The notes below the pieces were generated by a model that saw nothing but the letters and a program-made list of their open reading frames with translations, searched no databases and had not been told where the DNA came from. The translations under genes and the position numbers were made by a program. A DNA stretch of 64,000 bases, from assembly GCA_963737655.1 (NCBI GenBank), contig CAVTTN010000002.1, positions 1,984,001 to 2,048,000 of the forward strand, written 5' to 3'. This DNA comes from an uncultured Planctomycetota bacterium (GTDB taxonomy: Bacteria > Planctomycetota > Planctomycetia > Isosphaerales > Isosphaeraceae). Position 1 is the first letter of the stretch. Every line of letters begins with the position of its first letter. Of this stretch, positions 1-7,327 are shown one piece after another.

Positions 1-180
1 GATTACGAGTTCGAGGATCTGTGGGGGATCGCCCAAGTCATCTACGAAGAGACGACGGGTAGCGAGATGCCAACGGTCGATTTTGCTTGGCCTGCCGAGC
101 CGAAGGGGGATCGCTGGGATTTCGACGACGACGAACAAGTCACACGCAAGCTCCCCAAACTGGCCGAGCTTTACGCCTGA
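1..180 (+). CDS. 3' end of a cassette gene, DUF4240-like protein (partial)
   Basis: Frame 1 is open from base 1: DYEFEDLWGIAQVIYEETTG...EPKGDRWDFDDDEQVTRKLPKLAELYA*. The 'P.G..WDFDD....LP.LA' tail resembles DUF4240 C-termini. The stop TGA lies inside the R'' box of attC1. Confidence 0.65.
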   Translation, partial: DYEFEDLWGIAQVIYEETTGSEMPTVDFAWPAEPKGDRWDFDDDEQVTRKLPKLAELYA

Positions 181-274
181 CCTCGCGCTGCAGCGGACCC
201 CGCACCGCCTCGGTGCTCCCCGTGCTATCATGGATTCCTGGGCGGTGCAGGTCCGCTGAGCTCTATCGTTAGGC
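175..274 (+). repeat. attC site 1 (100 bp)
   Basis: R'' GCCTGAC, 5 nt, L'' GCTGCAGC ... L' GCTGAGC, 6 nt, R' GTTAGGC. Extra G in L''; stem GGACCCCGCACCGCC / GGCGGTGCAGGTCC. Confidence 0.9.
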
Positions 275-289
275 GGCTTGGAGACACCG

Positions 290-853
290 ATGGAGGAATC
301 GGACCTCGCCGCGATTGCGCACCGGCTCGCTCGCCCGAGCGTCCTGCTCAAGCGCGACGCCGCCGTGGGTGCTCTCGCCGGCGTGTGGGGCGGCGCAGGC
401 GTTGTGCCCGCCCCGGCCGGGCCTTTCCGGCACTGGCTCAGCATCGACTGCCGCTTCCTCCCTGCCGGGCTCGGGCCGCCTGGCGGCGTCCTGAGCGTCT
501 ACACCAACGAACAGGACTGCGTGTCCGGTTACGTGGGCCACGACCCGGCGGCGAGCCTCGCGGTCGGCGAGGGGCATCCTCTTTATGCACAGCCCAGGTC
601 CTCGCTTCCACCGCCGGAGGCCCTGTCCGCAGAGGACGATGCGACGTACATTCACCTCTGGCAATCCAACTGTCCTCTGTATGCGAGTGAGGCGACGGCG
701 GTGCTCGGCGGCTGGCATTTCCCCTGGCCCGACGGCGATTGGGAGGAGTTGCGTGAGCATCGCCTTCTGGTCTGGACGATCGAGGACTCGGAGCCGTGGG
801 TCGAGGTGTGGGCCGAACCCTTCGGGTTCCGCGTTCTGCAGCGGATCACGTAA
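290..853 (+). CDS. Cassette 1: hypothetical protein (weak resemblance to YwqG/DUF1963-like proteins)
   Basis: ATG at 290 after GGAG; ORF fills the attC1-attC2 interval; Trp-rich C-terminus GGWHFPWPDGDWEEL...EPWVEVW. Confidence 0.75.
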   Translation: MEESDLAAIAHRLARPSVLLKRDAAVGALAGVWGGAGVVPAPAGPFRHWLSIDCRFLPAGLGPPGGVLSVYTNEQDCVSGYVGHDPAASLAVGEGHPLYAQPRSSLPPPEALSAEDDATYIHLWQSNCPLYASEATAVLGGWHFPWPDGDWEELREHRLLVWTIEDSEPWVEVWAEPFGFRVLQRIT

Positions 854-857
854 CGCC

Positions 858-915
858 GCCTAACCGGGCGCTGCAGCGGACCCCGCACCGCCGCATCTGA
901 TCTTTGGCGTTAGGC
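858..915 (+). repeat. attC site 2 (58 bp, internally deleted)
   Basis: Perfect R'' GCCTAAC, L'' GCTGCAGC and R' GTTAGGC. The loop and most of the right arm are missing (CCGCC-GCAT-CTGATC). Confidence 0.85.
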
Positions 916-929
916 GGCTTGGAGGCGAC

Positions 930-1286
930 GTGTCCGAAGGCGCACTCTTCAAGCCCGGTCAACTCGACTTCGTCCACTCGATCCGAGACCTGCTCGGCGA
1001 GGTCCGTGAGCGACCAGCCATGTGGCTCGGTGAGAAGTCGCTGACCGGGCTCAAGTGCCTCCTGTTCGGCGACGAGATCGCTTGTGGCAAGCATGGCATC
1101 ACCGAGCCGGATCAACTGCCGGATGACGTCCCCTGGCGGGGTTTCCGCGAGTGGCTTGCGGGGCGTTATGATAGAGTCGGCTGGAGCGTCGATTGGTACT
1201 GGTTGCTCATCGAACATTCGTCCTCGCAGGAGGAGGCGTTCGATCGCTTCTTCGAGCTGCTCGCGGAATACGAGGCCGCCGTCTAA
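930..1286 (+). CDS. Cassette 2: small helical hypothetical protein (RPAMWLG...FREWL...AFDRFFELL family)
   Basis: GTG start after GGAGG; stop TAA lies inside the R'' box of attC3. Confidence 0.8.
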   Translation: MSEGALFKPGQLDFVHSIRDLLGEVRERPAMWLGEKSLTGLKCLLFGDEIACGKHGITEPDQLPDDVPWRGFREWLAGRYDRVGWSVDWYWLLIEHSSSQEEAFDRFFELLAEYEAAV

Positions 1287-1380
1287 CCTCGTGCTGCAGA
1301 GGACCCCGCACCGCCGCGGCGGTTTACGCGTTATCCTCGTACTCTCGGCGGTGTGGGTCCGCTGAGCTTTGGCGTTCGGC
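1281..1380 (+). repeat. attC site 3 (100 bp)
   Basis: GTCTAAC, 5 nt, GCTGCAGA GGACCCCGCACCGCC ... GGCGGTGTGGGTCC GCTGAGC, 6 nt, GTTCGGC. Confidence 0.9.
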
Positions 1381-1395
1381 GGCGGAGAATCAACC

Positions 1396-1803
1396 ATGAT
1401 CCGACGGCCAGACCTCCGCCCCAGGGTCCGCCATCTCCTGATCGGCGTGGCCGTCGCAGCAGTCGGCCTCTTCGTATTCCGGGACACCTGGGATGGTGGC
1501 GAGGAGGTCATCGTTCGCCAAGATCCGGAGGATCGGCGACCGTGGAATCGCGGCGATGCGATCCGAGTCCGGCTGGATGGCGACCGTTTGCGCGCGTACG
1601 GCCTCTCCAAAGCAGACGTGGTGGAAGCGCTGACACCGAGCACCATTCTCGGTTCCCAGAAGCGAGTCGATCCGCCCGCGGGGGTCGTGTACTTCAGGCG
1701 CCTCCCACGAGCCGACCAGCTCGAAAACTGCGTCTTGAAGGCCGATGCCGAGGGGGAGATCGTCCGGCTCAAGGATGTTGCGAGGGTCGAAGTCGGTCGG
1801 TGA
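1396..1803 (+). CDS. Cassette 3: membrane-anchored stand-alone AcrB/RND docking (DN) subdomain protein
   Basis: N-terminal TM helix, then AIRVRLDGDRLRAYGLSKADVVEAL and LENCVLK...GEIVRLKDVARVEVG, matching RND permease DN-subdomain motifs. Confidence 0.7.
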   Translation: MIRRPDLRPRVRHLLIGVAVAAVGLFVFRDTWDGGEEVIVRQDPEDRRPWNRGDAIRVRLDGDRLRAYGLSKADVVEALTPSTILGSQKRVDPPAGVVYFRRLPRADQLENCVLKADAEGEIVRLKDVARVEVGR

Positions 1804-1924
1804 AGGCTCGGCATCGCCCATCGATTCTCGACGGGATGGGGAGGGGGTCGAGTGGCTCGGCTCGGGCGGGCCGTCCGTCAGAGAGGGTGGTCACCGCCGC
1901 CGGAAGCGTGCCGGCCGGTCTGCC

Positions 1925-2024
1925 GCGTAACCTCGCTCCGCCGCGGGTTCCGCGGCGCCGCGGCGCTTGTGGTAGCATCACCGATGTCTCGGCGGTGCGG
2001 ATCCGCTGAGCTTGATCGTTTGGC
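1925..2024 (+). repeat. attC site 4 (100 bp, degenerate left arm)
   Basis: GCGTAAC CTCGC ... GGCGGTGCGGATCCGCTGAGC, 6 nt, GTTTGGC. Confidence 0.8.
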
Positions 2025-2065
2025 GGCGGAGATCCGACCGGGCTTTACAGGAAGGAGTTCCAGGT

Positions 2066-2506
2066 ATGCGATCGCGTTCCGTCTGGCTATGCGGCTCGAT
2101 CGTCGTGGCCCTGGCTTGCGCGGGGTTGAGGGCTGACGTTCCGCCCCTCGGCGTCGATGAGTTGAAACAGCAGGCGACTCACGTCGTCGTCGGGAAGCTC
2201 ACGACGGTGTATCGCTCGGCAAAAACCGGCGACGACTTCGTGAGGACGAGCGGCATCGCCGAGATCGTTGTCGAGAAGGTCGAGAAAGGCGGCGGGCCAA
2301 AGGTTGGTGAGGTCACGTTCGTCCGGTTCTGGAACCAGCACTGGGTTGGTAAGGGAATGGTTCCCCCGCACAGCCCCGGCCATCACGTCCCGGCGGAGGG
2401 CGCGGTCGTCCGCGCCTACCTGAAGCGAGGCCAGGATGGCAGCTACGAGGCCCTGTTGCCGAATGGATTGGCGGTCGTGGCCGAGCCCGCGATCCGGCCT
2501 CGATGA
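2066..2506 (+). CDS. Cassette 4: secreted hypothetical protein
   Basis: ATG at 2066 after GAAGGAG; signal peptide ...ALACAGLRA-D; beta-rich ATHVVVGK motif. Confidence 0.75.
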   Translation: MRSRSVWLCGSIVVALACAGLRADVPPLGVDELKQQATHVVVGKLTTVYRSAKTGDDFVRTSGIAEIVVEKVEKGGGPKVGEVTFVRFWNQHWVGKGMVPPHSPGHHVPAEGAVVRAYLKRGQDGSYEALLPNGLAVVAEPAIRPR

Positions 2507-2527
2507 GCGTACGGCTCCGGAAGCTGC

Positions 2528-2626
2528 GCCCAACCTCGCTCTGCGGCGGACCCGGCCACGCGGGCGCGGTATGATCGTGCGGGGCGTACCGGAATGGGGC
2601 CGGTCCGCGGAGCTTGGTCGTGAGGC
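2528..2626 (+). repeat. attC site 5 (99 bp, degenerate; R' GTG instead of GTT)
   Basis: GCCCAAC CTCGC TCTGCGGCGGACCCGGCC ... GGCCGGTCCGCGGAGC, 6 nt, GTGAGGC. Confidence 0.75.
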
Positions 2627-2644
2627 GGCGGAGTCAAAGACGCT

Positions 2645-3088
2645 ATGTCTGTCGAGATCGAGCCGGTGCTGCTCTCGGGCGATGACGACGCCATCTTCGA
2701 GTTCGCGTCGGACCCCGACAATTGCCTCGTCACCGACCATCGGGAGGACGAGGGCGACCTGATCGGCTACGTCATCGACGCGATCCCCGAGGCCGGGTTG
2801 GCCTTCTCGGAGGACGACTCGGGCGATGACCTGATCCTCTCCTGCCGAGGCCGCTCCACGCCGGTCGGCCTGACGATGACCCCCCGGGACCGCTACATCA
2901 CCATCCGCGCCCTCAACCGCCTCCTGGCGGGCGACTATGAGATGCGGCTGTTCCGGGTCACGCGCCAGGCGGACACGCACTCCTTCTATCTCAAGCCCGC
3001 CCGATGGTGGAGCGAAGCGGAGAGGGACCATCCCGAGGAGGTGGACCGAGTCTTCCTGGTGGTCGACGAGGCGCTGGACTTCCCGTGA
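2645..3088 (+). CDS. Cassette 5: acidic hypothetical protein
   Basis: 147-aa ORF filling the attC5-attC6 interval; stop ends 1 nt before R''. Confidence 0.75.
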   Translation: MSVEIEPVLLSGDDDAIFEFASDPDNCLVTDHREDEGDLIGYVIDAIPEAGLAFSEDDSGDDLILSCRGRSTPVGLTMTPRDRYITIRALNRLLAGDYEMRLFRVTRQADTHSFYLKPARWWSEAERDHPEEVDRVFLVVDEALDFP

Positions 3089-3089
3089 C

Positions 3090-3191
3090 GCCGAACCTGG
3101 CGCCGCGGCGGACCCCGCGCCGCCGCGGAGCTTTCTCCTTCGAGTCGACGGATCCTCGGCGGTGCGGGTCCGCCGAGCTGATGCGTCAGGC
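3090..3191 (+). repeat. attC site 6 (102 bp, terminal; R' GTC instead of GTT)
   Basis: GCCGAAC CTGGC GCCGCGGCGGACCCCGCGCCGCC ... GGCGGTGCGGGTCCGCCGAGC, 6 nt, GTCAGGC. Confidence 0.8.
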
Positions 3192-3234
3192 GGCTACCCC
3201 CTTGCGTGAGGAAAAGGGGTCAGGAGTGCTCTGG

Positions 3235-3360
3235 AGAAAACCCCGGTGATAGCGTAGAAACGAGTAGGTCCGACTTCAGTCGGGCCTACAGAATAAGACG
3301 TTTTTGTAGGCCCGACTGAAGTCGGACCTACTCGTTTCCTCATTCTCAATGGGGTTTTCT
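3235..3360. repeat. REP doublet / MITE-like element (GTAG family)
   Basis: Perfect 34-bp inverted repeat at 3257-3290 / 3305-3338, each arm containing the palindrome GTAGGTCCGACTTCAGTCGGGCCTAC; outer inverted repeat AGAAAACCCC / GGGGTTTTCT. Confidence 0.85.
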
Positions 3361-3498
3361 ATGGAGCAGGGCCGGGGCCGATTTTGACCGGGGCGGGTGG
3401 CTGAACGACCGCCTCACCGTGAACGCGGGAAAGGGGCCAGGAGCCGATTTCGAGCAATACCCAGTGGTCGGGTCGAGAATCGGGCGATCCGGTTGGTT

Positions 3499-4413
3499 TC
3501 AGCCTGAGGGCGGGGTGGCGATCTCGTAGAGGTCGGACCCTTCGTTGCGGTCGGAGAGGAAGAGGAGTTTTCGGCCGTCGGGCGACCAGGTGGGGAAGGT
3601 GTCTCGGCCGGGATGCCTGGTGAGGTTCGTGGGGTTGGAGCCGTCGGCGGCCATCAGGTAGACCTCGAACTGGCCGTCTCGATTGGAGACGAAGGCGATT
3701 TGGCGGCCGTCGGGGGAGATCGCGGGGTAGTCGTCCAGTCCGGGGCTCCTGGTCAGGCGGGCGAGGTGGGTGCCGTCGGGGTGGATGGTGGCGATCTCCA
3801 GGCCGCCCCAGCGGTCGGTGGCGAAGGCGATGATCGTGCCGTCGGGCGACCAGCAGGGGTGGGCGTCGATCCCGGGGCTCTGCGAGAGCCGGACGAGGTC
3901 CGATCCGTCGGATTTGGCCGTGTAGATTTCTTGATTGCCGTCGTGGGTCGAGCTGAAGGCGAACCGCCGGCCGTCGGGCGACCAGCTCGGCCAATCCTGA
4001 TGCGAGAGGCCGCCCGAGCCGTCGCCCACGACCTTCTTGAGCCCCGAGCCGTCGAGGTTCACCATCGCCAGGTCGAGGTTCCCCTGGGTCCCCGAGAGCT
4101 CGACCACGGCCAGGAGCATGCGCTTGCCGTCGGGCGAGAACGCGCCGTTGAACTCCGGGGCCTTGCGGTCGGTCACTCGGCGGAGCGAATTCGGGTCGGT
4201 CCGGTCCATCGCGTACTGGAAGATCGCCATCCCGCCCGATTCGTGACGGGCGAACGTCACGAGCTTGCCGTCGGGCGAGAACGCGGGCCTCTGCTTGTCC
4301 TTGCCGTCGGTCGTGAGCCTTCGGGGGAGGGGAGGATCAACCGCCAAGACGCCAGGTTCGCCAAGAGTAAAAGAGAAAAGAACGAAGAATTTCACATATT
4401 TGAAGAATTTCAC
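3499..4413 (-). CDS. TolB-like PD40 beta-propeller protein
   Basis: Repeated P.(W/F)SPDG motifs; probable GTG start at 4413 or 4395 giving a signal peptide. Confidence 0.9.
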   Translation of the reverse strand: MKFFKYVKFFVLFSFTLGEPGVLAVDPPLPRRLTTDGKDKQRPAFSPDGKLVTFARHESGGMAIFQYAMDRTDPNSLRRVTDRKAPEFNGAFSPDGKRMLLAVVELSGTQGNLDLAMVNLDGSGLKKVVGDGSGGLSHQDWPSWSPDGRRFAFSSTHDGNQEIYTAKSDGSDLVRLSQSPGIDAHPCWSPDGTIIAFATDRWGGLEIATIHPDGTHLARLTRSPGLDDYPAISPDGRQIAFVSNRDGQFEVYLMAADGSNPTNLTRHPGRDTFPTWSPDGRKLLFLSDRNEGSDLYEIATPPSG

Positions 4414-4491
4414 AATTTCACCCTCACTGAATTTCTCTTCCTCTTCTTCTTTCTCTTCCTCTTCCTTGGCGGACCTGGCGTCTTGGCGGTT
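4339..4491. repeat. MITE-like element with 27-bp terminal inverted repeats and an AT-rich core
   Basis: AACCGCCAAGACGCCAGGTTCGCCAAG (4339-4365) / CTTGGCGGACCTGGCGTCTTGGCGGTT (4465-4491), one mismatch; internal direct repeat GAAGAATTTCACA. Confidence 0.8.
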
Positions 4492-4504
4492 GGTCCCCCC
4501 CGAT

Positions 4505-6013: not shown

Positions 6014-7327
6014 ATGAGGCCCCGGCTCGAGAGTCCCCCCGAAGTGAACGGACCCACCGAAGACGACGGCGCCGGGCGGCTGAAACGTCGGGCCTGGCTC
6101 GGCCTGGCGGCCTCGACCGTCCTGGCCGGGCGGGCCTGGGCCGAGGAGGGGCCGTCGGCCGAGGCGGACGAGATCCGGGAGGAGCGGGCCGTCCTGGAAA
6201 CGGCGACCAAGGCGGGGCTGGACCGTCTTTCGTGGTCGTCGTCCCCCCATTATGCCTGCCTCGGGAATGTCCGGGTCGAGGACCGCAAGAGGGCCCTGCG
6301 GTGGGCGGAGGCGCTGAGGGCCGGTTTCCTGTCGGAATGGCCCAGGCTGGGTTTCCCGGCCCGGCCCGATCCGAAAAGGCTCCTGATCCTCCTCACCAAG
6401 GATCGGCCGGGCTTCGTGGCCGCCGCTCGGGCCTTCGCCGACCACACCCCGTTCGAAGGGGTCAGCGGAATTTATTCTATCGAATTTCATCTTAATATTT
6501 GCAGTCACGTGATCGATTCGCATTCGGGGCGGACCGATGTCGAATTCATGTTCCGGACGGCTTGCCACGAAGGGATGCATCAACTTTGCTTCCATTGCGG
6601 AGTGTTCCGGCGGGGGGCCGACGTGCCTCGCTGGCTGGCCGAGGGGCTGGCGACCCTGGCCGAGTCGTGGGACGCCTGGGGGCGGCCTTCGCTCCTGGAA
6701 CGCAACGGTCCCGCAGTCGCCCCGGCCCTGGAACTGGCCCGGACCCGCAAGGGCTGGGTCGAACTCCCGGAGCTCCTGCTCGATGGGACCTGGAAGGAGG
6801 AAAATGACGAGGACTACCAAGCCAGATATGGCCAGAGCTGGCTCCTGGTCCATTACCTCGTGACCGAGCCGGCGATGGGGCGGAGGTTCCGCGCCTACCT
6901 CGCGACCATCGCCGGACGGGACGATTCCTCCCGGCAACTGCAGGACGCGCAGGCCCATTTCGGCGACCTCGGCCGCCTGGAACGGTCCCTGATCGAGCAC
7001 GCGAGCCTCGCTTCAGATCAATCCATCCAGGTATCCGCGATCGATCCGGCGAAAATGAGGTCGTCCTCGCTCTGGGCTGGGTGGCATGCTTACGTCTTCG
7101 TAAGCATGTCTTCGGACAGGTTCGCACCGAAGACATGCTTACGAAGACGTAAGCATGCCACCCAGCCGGGCCCGGACGAGTCCGGCCCTTCGGATCGGCT
7201 CGTGAGGGGGTTCGGGTCCGGTTTTCGACCTCGGAGGCGCGTCAGGGTCTTCCCGACCGTCGGAGTCGCCAGGTCCGCCCCGGCTTCTCGGACCGGGACA
7301 CCCTCGCGGTGGCCGATCGTGGTTTAG
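6014..7327 (+). CDS. DUF1570 domain (zincin-like) protein; 3' end uncertain
   Basis: RR signal, HEGMHQL, VPRWLAEGLATLAE, YGQSWLLVHYL. The ORF reads through a REP, so the true end may be near 7058. Confidence 0.8.
   Translation: MRPRLESPPEVNGPTEDDGAGRLKRRAWLGLAASTVLAGRAWAEEGPSAEADEIREERAVLETATKAGLDRLSWSSSPHYACLGNVRVEDRKRALRWAEALRAGFLSEWPRLGFPARPDPKRLLILLTKDRPGFVAAARAFADHTPFEGVSGIYSIEFHLNICSHVIDSHSGRTDVEFMFRTACHEGMHQLCFHCGVFRRGADVPRWLAEGLATLAESWDAWGRPSLLERNGPAVAPALELARTRKGWVELPELLLDGTWKEENDEDYQARYGQSWLLVHYLVTEPAMGRRFRAYLATIAGRDDSSRQLQDAQAHFGDLGRLERSLIEHASLASDQSIQVSAIDPAKMRSSSLWAGWHAYVFVSMSSDRFAPKTCLRRRKHATQPGPDESGPSDRLVRGFGSGFRPRRRVRVFPTVGVARSAPASRTGTPSRWPIVV
7075..7167. repeat. REP doublet (GTGG family), copy 1
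   Basis: Perfect 41-bp inverted repeat 7075-7115 / 7127-7167 with internal hairpin CATGCTTAC-GTCTTC-GTAAGCATG. Confidence 0.9.

Follow-up and report, generated by a model that had tools for sequence, protein, structure and literature searches.

The 64,000-nucleotide stretch of DNA analyzed here (the window, contig C2:1984001-2048000) comes from an uncultured planctomycete of the family Isosphaeraceae, with a genome assembly of 7.63 Mb that has 68.7% GC and is 88% complete. Six integron attC recombination sites and five co-oriented open reading frames (ORFs) lie within positions 175-3191, and the loops of several of these sites contain a box of the form (T)G-n-TAnnnT resembling an extended -10 promoter element. 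We have examined this box in the window, across the genome and among relatives, and consider whether it might transcribe the cassette that follows.

The sites have the inverted R'' (RYYYAAC) and R' (GTTRRRY) cores with inner L boxes in their family consensus, and folding gives imperfect hairpins with an unpaired spacer and a variable terminal structure. They are 58-102 bp long in the window, and a range of 57-141 bp has been described for attC sites (PMC5027507). They bound co-oriented single-ORF cassettes, and the genome has a cognate IntI with an adjacent array of the same family. Sites 2-4 retain the AAC..GTT triplets, while the cores of sites 1, 5 and 6 are decayed, with TGAC in the R'' of site 1 and GTG (site 5) or GTC (site 6) replacing GTT. 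A search of positions 1-4000 for known RNA families in the sites gave no Rfam match at gathering level.

The window array is the tail of a cluster of 23 attC matches at C2:1969900-1987193. The sole intI above the TIGR02249 cut-off in this 88%-complete genome lies 4.8 Mb from the cluster, at C2:6777135-6778073 (474.6 bits); it is intact, and is adjoined by its own array of the same attC family, divergent from intI. With no intI near the 23-site cluster, the window array is a cluster of attC sites lacking an integrase (CALIN), and therefore has no integron cassette promoter (Pc) to rely on. Identical cassettes are found in different clusters, and in different orders, within the genome, an indirect sign that IntI may recombine the sites.

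Table 1. attC sites, loop boxes and cassette ORFs of the window array
Feature	Position	Strand	Remarks
attC1	175..274	+	R'' GCCTGAC 175-181, R' GTTAGGC 268-274; bottom-strand hairpin predicted
Extended -10-like box TGn-TATCAT, attC1 loop	223..231	+	start predicted at ~237-240 from sigma70 geometry
Cassette ORF, 187 aa	290..853	+	no Pfam match; GGAG at 280-283; predicted target of attC1 box
attC2	858..915	+	58 bp, short or internally deleted; loop absent, hence no box
Cassette ORF, 118 aa	930..1286	+	no Pfam match; would need read-through from attC1
attC3	1281..1380	+	R'' GTCTAAC, R' GTTCGGC
G-14-n-TATCCT box, attC3 loop	1330..1337	+	without T-15
Cassette ORF, 135 aa	1396..1803	+	AcrB/AcrD/AcrF-like stretch, PF00873, 30.6 bits, residues 54-134
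attC4	1925..2024	+	R'' GCGTAAC, R' GTTTGGC; 7 mismatches at conserved arm positions
Extended -10-like box TGn-TAGCAT, attC4 loop	1970..1978	+	
Cassette ORF, 146 aa	2066..2506	+	no Pfam match; N-terminus hydrophobic by eye
attC5	2528..2626	+	different stem subtype; R'' GCCCAAC, R' GTGAGGC without the GTT triplet
G-14-n-TATGAT box, attC5	2568..2575	+	third register, 44 nt before R' core versus 36 or 39
Last cassette ORF, 147 aa	2645..3088	+	no Pfam match
attC6, terminal, decayed	3090..3191	+	R'' GCCGAAC, R' GTCAGGC; without TAnnnT

A promoter-like box in the attC loops

The initial annotation of the window had noted TAnnnT hexamers in four of the five full-length sites, two of them with the extended -10 TGn, and had proposed that each site may drive the next cassette. 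The four hexamers are where it placed them (TATCAT at 226-231, TATCCT at 1332-1337, TAGCAT at 1973-1978 and TATGAT at 2570-2575), as are the two TG dinucleotides, at 223-224 before TATCAT and 1970-1971 before TAGCAT; sites 1 and 4 are the only ones in the window with a full TG. TATCCT is preceded by CGT, with G-14 and no TG, and TATGAT by CGG. The hexamers of sites 1 and 3 both lie +51 from the start of R'', as claimed, and that of site 5 is in a different register, some 6-9 nt further 5'. The absence of a clear -35 is also borne out, since a consensus scan of positions 1-3600 returned no sites, and none lies within the attC arms. The loops had been described as GC-rich. They are in fact T-rich (35.5% T, 14% A and 50% GC, in a genome of 69% GC), and because of this the window by itself is weak evidence: shuffling alone puts a plain TAnnnT in about 31% of loops, and its presence in four of five sites has p = 0.037. 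Site 6 does lack TAnnnT, but the suggestion that a site with no cassette behind it has no box does not hold. GnTAnnnT is present in 4/9 terminal attCs of multi-site clusters, so its absence from attC6 is uninformative.

An iterated hidden Markov model search of the genome (E <= 1) gave 94 attC matches, 81 of them full length, comprising 68 unique sites and 67 unique loops. These loops were compared with 1000 shuffles preserving mono- or dinucleotide composition. The top strand has TAnnnT in 43 loops and the bottom strand in 2; the shuffles average 21.1 (mononucleotide) and 18.4 (dinucleotide) with a maximum of 34. Adding the upstream dinucleotide sharpens the contrast, TGnTAnnnT occurring in 35 top-strand loops and no bottom-strand loop (shuffle mean 1.3-1.5, maximum 6) and TGnTAnnAT in 32 and none (mean 0.2, maximum 2). 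The spacing is specific, with TG separated from TA by one nucleotide in 37 loops compared with 13 at most for any other gap. The hexamer mostly ends 36 or 39 nt before the R' core, and a third register, at 44 nt, includes site 5 of the window. Its distance from the 3' arm has three main values (~19, 22 and 27 nt), and a shorter attC type contains the box as well. None of the 46 motif occurrences in the genome's attCs has TTG at -37 to -34. As read from the DNA, this has the form of a sigma70-type TGn/-10 element: a hexamer with T-12, A-11 and T-7 on the top (non-template) strand, oriented toward the gene, with T-15 and G-14 predicted to compensate for the missing -35.

The exact arm pattern is present in 52 of the 121 family genomes. 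Loci located by arm pattern or by an adjoining intI provided 159 unique inner segments from 25 genomes, a sample biased toward sites like those of this attC family. In these TAnnnT is present 87 times on the top strand and 9 times on the bottom (shuffles 36.4±5.3), TGnTAnnnT 56 times and never (2.9), and GnTAnnnT 79 times and 4 times (11.3). The box is thus real and family-wide in this attC family, and the comparison with shuffled and opposite-strand loops that the initial annotation had called for is strongly passed in the host genome and in its relatives. In the cultured genera Tautonia and Aquisphaera, single arrays contain neighboring attCs with and without the motif. The named records with the same attC pattern are mostly from Isosphaeraceae or other Planctomycetota. 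Isosphaeraceae-type attCs with the full box also appear in records labelled Armatimonadota, Gammaproteobacteria and Gemmataceae, which may reflect cassette transfer or mis-binning. A generic attC finder applied to other Planctomycetota found no more than one site at any locus among 20 regions flanking intI, and was uninformative.

Combining the relatives' segments with 63 from the host, after removal of two wrong-strand duplicates, gave a pooled set of 220. TAnnnT is present in 124 of these, as 30 different hexamers. Among these 124, G-14 is present in 93%, T-15 in 76% and A-8 in 81%, and positions -13, -10 and -9 each take three or four bases. Given G.TA, there is T at -7 in 119 of 140 cases.

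About 40% of attCs lack the motif, including those beside attI, yet their arms are intact. Motif-less loops of several genera often have a second conserved word at the position of the box, GG-TCAGTC, TCATGC or TCATTC (genomes G110, G111, G113, G114 and G027). This word may serve as a -10 for an alternative sigma factor, or simply mark one more inherited subtype. The box is more frequent in the distal halves of arrays (23/33) than in the proximal (14/33; p = 0.046), but this count includes a motif-less cassette of 10 copies that are mostly proximal, and we do not rely on it.

Host promoters, proposed mechanism and alternatives

Host promoters were surveyed from rough codon-model gene calls (5513 genes) with the integron regions masked. 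TTG starts at -36, -35 and -34 in 144, 258 and 70 of 1696 upstream TAnnnT elements, compared with 6-29 elsewhere, and the host promoter consensus read from these is TTG-17-TAnnnT. TG precedes TAnnAT in 67/493 elements without TTG and 8/186 with it (p = 3e-4). Within 1707 tandem spacers, TGnTAnnnT without a -35 occurs 64 times in the sense and 23 times in the antisense direction. TAnnAT with G-14 occurs 98 and 28 times respectively, whereas those that lack G-14 show little bias (129 versus 99). No TGnTAnnAT was found in 375 convergent spacers. Many of the host's -35-less elements share with the attC loops pyrimidines before TG and C or G after the hexamer. In E. coli sigma factor H455 and E458 of region 3.0 read G-14 (PMC2613000), and the residues aligned to both are conserved in the host RpoD. 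Taken with the gene-oriented -35-less elements, this predicts that the host primary sigma factor is able to read the box.

We consider it rather probable, from the motif and its context, that the (T)G-n-TAnnnT box found in ~55-65% of the ~100-bp attCs is a lineage-specific, -35-less extended -10 promoter for the main sigma factor of the host, transcribing the next cassette. RNA polymerase with RpoD would bind the box in double-stranded attC, and transcription would begin 6-8 nt past the hexamer, inside the 3' arm. For the window this predicts starts near 237-240, 1343-1346, 1984-1987 and 2581-2584. The leader, with a median of ~63 nt (n = 25), would run through R' to the start of the next cassette with its Shine-Dalgarno sequence. 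Since the loop is part of the upstream cassette, the promoter would travel with that cassette and, after insertion or shuffling, serve whichever one came next. Clusters without an integrase and hence without Pc, such as that of the window, would stay expressible. A cassette that follows a short or motif-less site, as the one after attC2 does, would depend on read-through or be silent. The loop is the sole part of attC free of the constraints of integrase binding; an ancestral TTTCTGG loop likely gave the TG, and gain of TA..T would then have completed the promoter in this lineage. What the initial annotation proposed therefore stands in part. The motif fits an extended -10, TG or G-14 would offset the missing -35, and the host's own -35-less elements match it, but 'each site' was too strong a claim, and one attC subfamily, distinguished by its stem, has the box in none of its ten sites.

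A number of observations weigh against a promoter. Our shuffles ignore the common descent of the loops, and presence of the motif tracks attC subtype. The fraction of sites with the box varies from 0/5 to 8/8 between relative genomes. Loops common to different genera are almost unchanged, and these include motif-less ones such as those with TCAGTC; the different registers of the box may all go back to a single ancestor through small indels. In the predicted hairpin the hexamer occupies the least paired positions, on both strands, and -15/-14 are often able to pair with -5/-6, so structure may contribute to the pattern. The region upstream of the box is GC-rich, and while TGn can substitute for a missing -35, most TGn promoters still gain from -35 or UP contacts (PMC2613000). 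A compensating TAnnnT was found in none of 33 leaders of cassettes behind motif-less sites. A scan of the 88%-complete genome for CarD domains, as an aid to an attC promoter, gave a single match, in a 914-codon frame consistent with Mfd, and we rejected CarD in this role.

One alternative is that the box was simply inherited with the loop. The sites would then be copies of a few templates with a T-rich loop that chanced to read TGnTAnnAT, kept by homogenizing descent and by a purine skew or hairpin-tip geometry that favors bottom-strand folding or cruciform extrusion, and any promoter activity would be weak and incidental. It is known that attCs of chromosomal integrons are conserved within taxa (PMC8618304), that attC bottom strands are purine-skewed, which T-rich loops fit, and that loop composition influences strand selectivity and extrusion (PMC5027507). 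Consistent with such descent, entire loops recur across genera whether or not they bear the motif, the motif follows the stem subtype, and the hexamer is at an unpaired apex flanked in many sites by TG..CA or CG..CG. Moreover, in a sister family of the same class (f5) homologous loops keep the frame TTTCTGG..TCA, retaining TG and the downstream TC without the hexamer, from which the TG of the loop is probably ancestral. Yet the same family shows no enrichment of the hexamer itself (TAnnnT in 11/39 loops versus 8.6±2.4 in shuffles, GnTAnnnT in 3 versus 2.4). Since the frame is kept and the hexamer is not, the hexamer is lineage-specific and is not generally needed for attC structure. Nor do composition-preserving shuffles yield the motif. 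Skew or AT-richness does not predict that the middle bases should be free, in 30 hexamers, while T-12, A-11, T-7 and G-14 hold. In 50 disjoint pairs of nearest neighbors, -15/-14/-12/-11/-7 changed in 56/250 cells and -13/-10/-9 in 65/150 (p = 1.7e-5), a contrast that would favor purifying selection at the promoter positions beyond common descent, but is inflated because one member of each pair had to carry the motif. G-14 and T-15 also persist where they have no partner to pair with: among 40 sites with a base other than C at -6, 35 retain G-14, and among 78 with a base other than A at -5, 54 retain T-15. The box is present in 15/24 sites with decayed arms and 18/25 with intact arms, a retention not significantly different from neutral loss (p = 0.09). 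On balance we regard simple inheritance as the main rival reading and a real one, though less probable than a promoter.

The box could alternatively be bound by RNA polymerase or another host protein in some other role, such as local melting that aids or hinders hairpin extrusion and thereby tunes recombination, or priming on single-stranded cassette intermediates. The notion of priming comes from hairpin origins that are primed by RNA polymerase. The hexamer is at the center of the palindrome and most unpaired on both strands, and extrusion is thought to nucleate there (PMC5027507). Furthermore, ribosome access has no predicted gain from initiation within attC, the unpaired fraction being 0.39 for attC-initiated RNA and 0.37 for read-through RNA (n = 25, p = 0.26). 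However, the box is strictly oriented on the top strand to face the next ribosome-binding site, and TG or G-14 is an element of double-stranded DNA, both of which fit ordinary initiation of transcription, and some 40% of sites manage with intact arms and no box, some of them beside attI. We therefore find such a role improbable.

If the box is a promoter, then attC in the Isosphaeraceae would be a portable promoter, with motif-bearing and motif-less subtypes acting as on and off spacers. Expression of a cassette would be set by its neighbor, not by its distance from Pc, and integrase-less clusters would stay expressed. This broader proposal we hold to have about an even chance of being correct.

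Other integron elements and comparison with known systems

Several further elements are associated with the integrons of this genome. Elements of the IS110/IS1111 family that target attC are present on C2 outside the window, for example at 1675400-1677500. The IS110-type pattern occurs eight times, at least once with a bottom-strand IS110 transposase (PF01548, PF02371) and six times with a frame of the same length. A non-coding element of 383 bp, without Rfam match, is present in 28 copies. It may be a non-autonomous derivative, and it is a matter of speculation that it has retained a guide or bridge RNA. Both types are inserted in R'' between RYYY and AAC, in more than one third of attCs, and, lying upstream of the box, would not separate the next cassette from it. 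A GC-rich cassette of 331-333 bp with an identical motif-less attC has 10 copies (including C2:6778276-6778615), among them the first cassette at attI and tandem triplets. Neither of its strands contains TAnnnT, and no start codon for a protein is obvious. Between intI and attI (~C2:6778170-6778235) are two identical 15-bp boxes ending in TATAAT, arranged as an inverted repeat with no TTG -35 by eye. Their arrangement suggests symmetric divergent promoters for intI (PintI) and Pc, or a shared operator.

In the window, the product of the ORF at 1396-1803 carries a stand-alone, fragment-like AcrB/AcrD/AcrF domain and is not a complete transporter. Directly after attC6, at 3227-3368, is a palindrome with 67-nt arms that are 84% complementary, similar to repetitive extragenic palindromes or miniature inverted-repeat transposable elements (REP/MITE-like). 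It is one of a family of intergenic repeats scattered through the genome in dozens of copies. A perfect 41-nt inverted pair at 7075-7167 and a 60-nt pair at 4329-4501 are probably more intergenic repeats.

The arrays are similar to other sedentary chromosomal integrons and CALINs in having single-gene, co-oriented cassettes bounded by homogeneous ~100-bp attCs, and one intact intI elsewhere with a divergent array. Classically, a cassette has no promoter of its own and relies on Pc for expression (PMC8876359; 10.1101/2022.09.11.507474), and distal cassettes and integrase-less clusters are treated as a silent memory, expressed only after reshuffling next to Pc. Here, by contrast, a promoter-like box is a recurring part of attC itself. 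If it functions as we suggest, it would be a simple, shuffle-proof way to express large arrays and CALINs across a whole bacterial family, and would mean that the variable terminal loop has another function besides folding.

Expression independent of Pc has been ascribed to promoters in cassette leaders, gene-less cassettes, IS elements and group IIC-attC introns (PMC8876359). Promoters are carried by the cassettes of cmlA, qac, ereA and qnrVC, by toxin-antitoxin cassettes and by gene-less cassettes of Vibrionaceae (PMC8876359; PMC11014356). As predicted here, these allow expression inside arrays without Pc, but they lie in the leaders or bodies of particular cassettes and are not a conserved attC motif. 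In the gene-less cassette F2 scattered start sites within attC have been termed possibly spurious (PMC11014356), and no mention of starts in attC was found in the main text of Krin 2018 (PMC5963079). Literature outside subscription journals and supplements yielded no conserved complete promoter in attC loops and no start-site data for Planctomycetes.

The closest comparison is a hybrid promoter in Vibrio DAT722, whose -35 is in attC and whose -10, unique in that array, is in cassette 21; downstream transcript was ~40-fold higher by quantitative PCR (PMC2945992). There, as is predicted here, attC supplies a promoter element for the next cassette. In the Isosphaeraceae, unlike DAT722, the whole of (T)G-n-TAnnnT is inside the loop, independent of the next cassette, and is present in over half of the sites. 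In its arrangement of T-15 G-14 n T-12 A-11 n n n T-7 and its lack of a recognizable -35 the box resembles galP1 and lambda Pre* (PMC2613000), but the element predicted here lies within a recombination palindrome that is rich in GC and lacks AT-rich sequence upstream.

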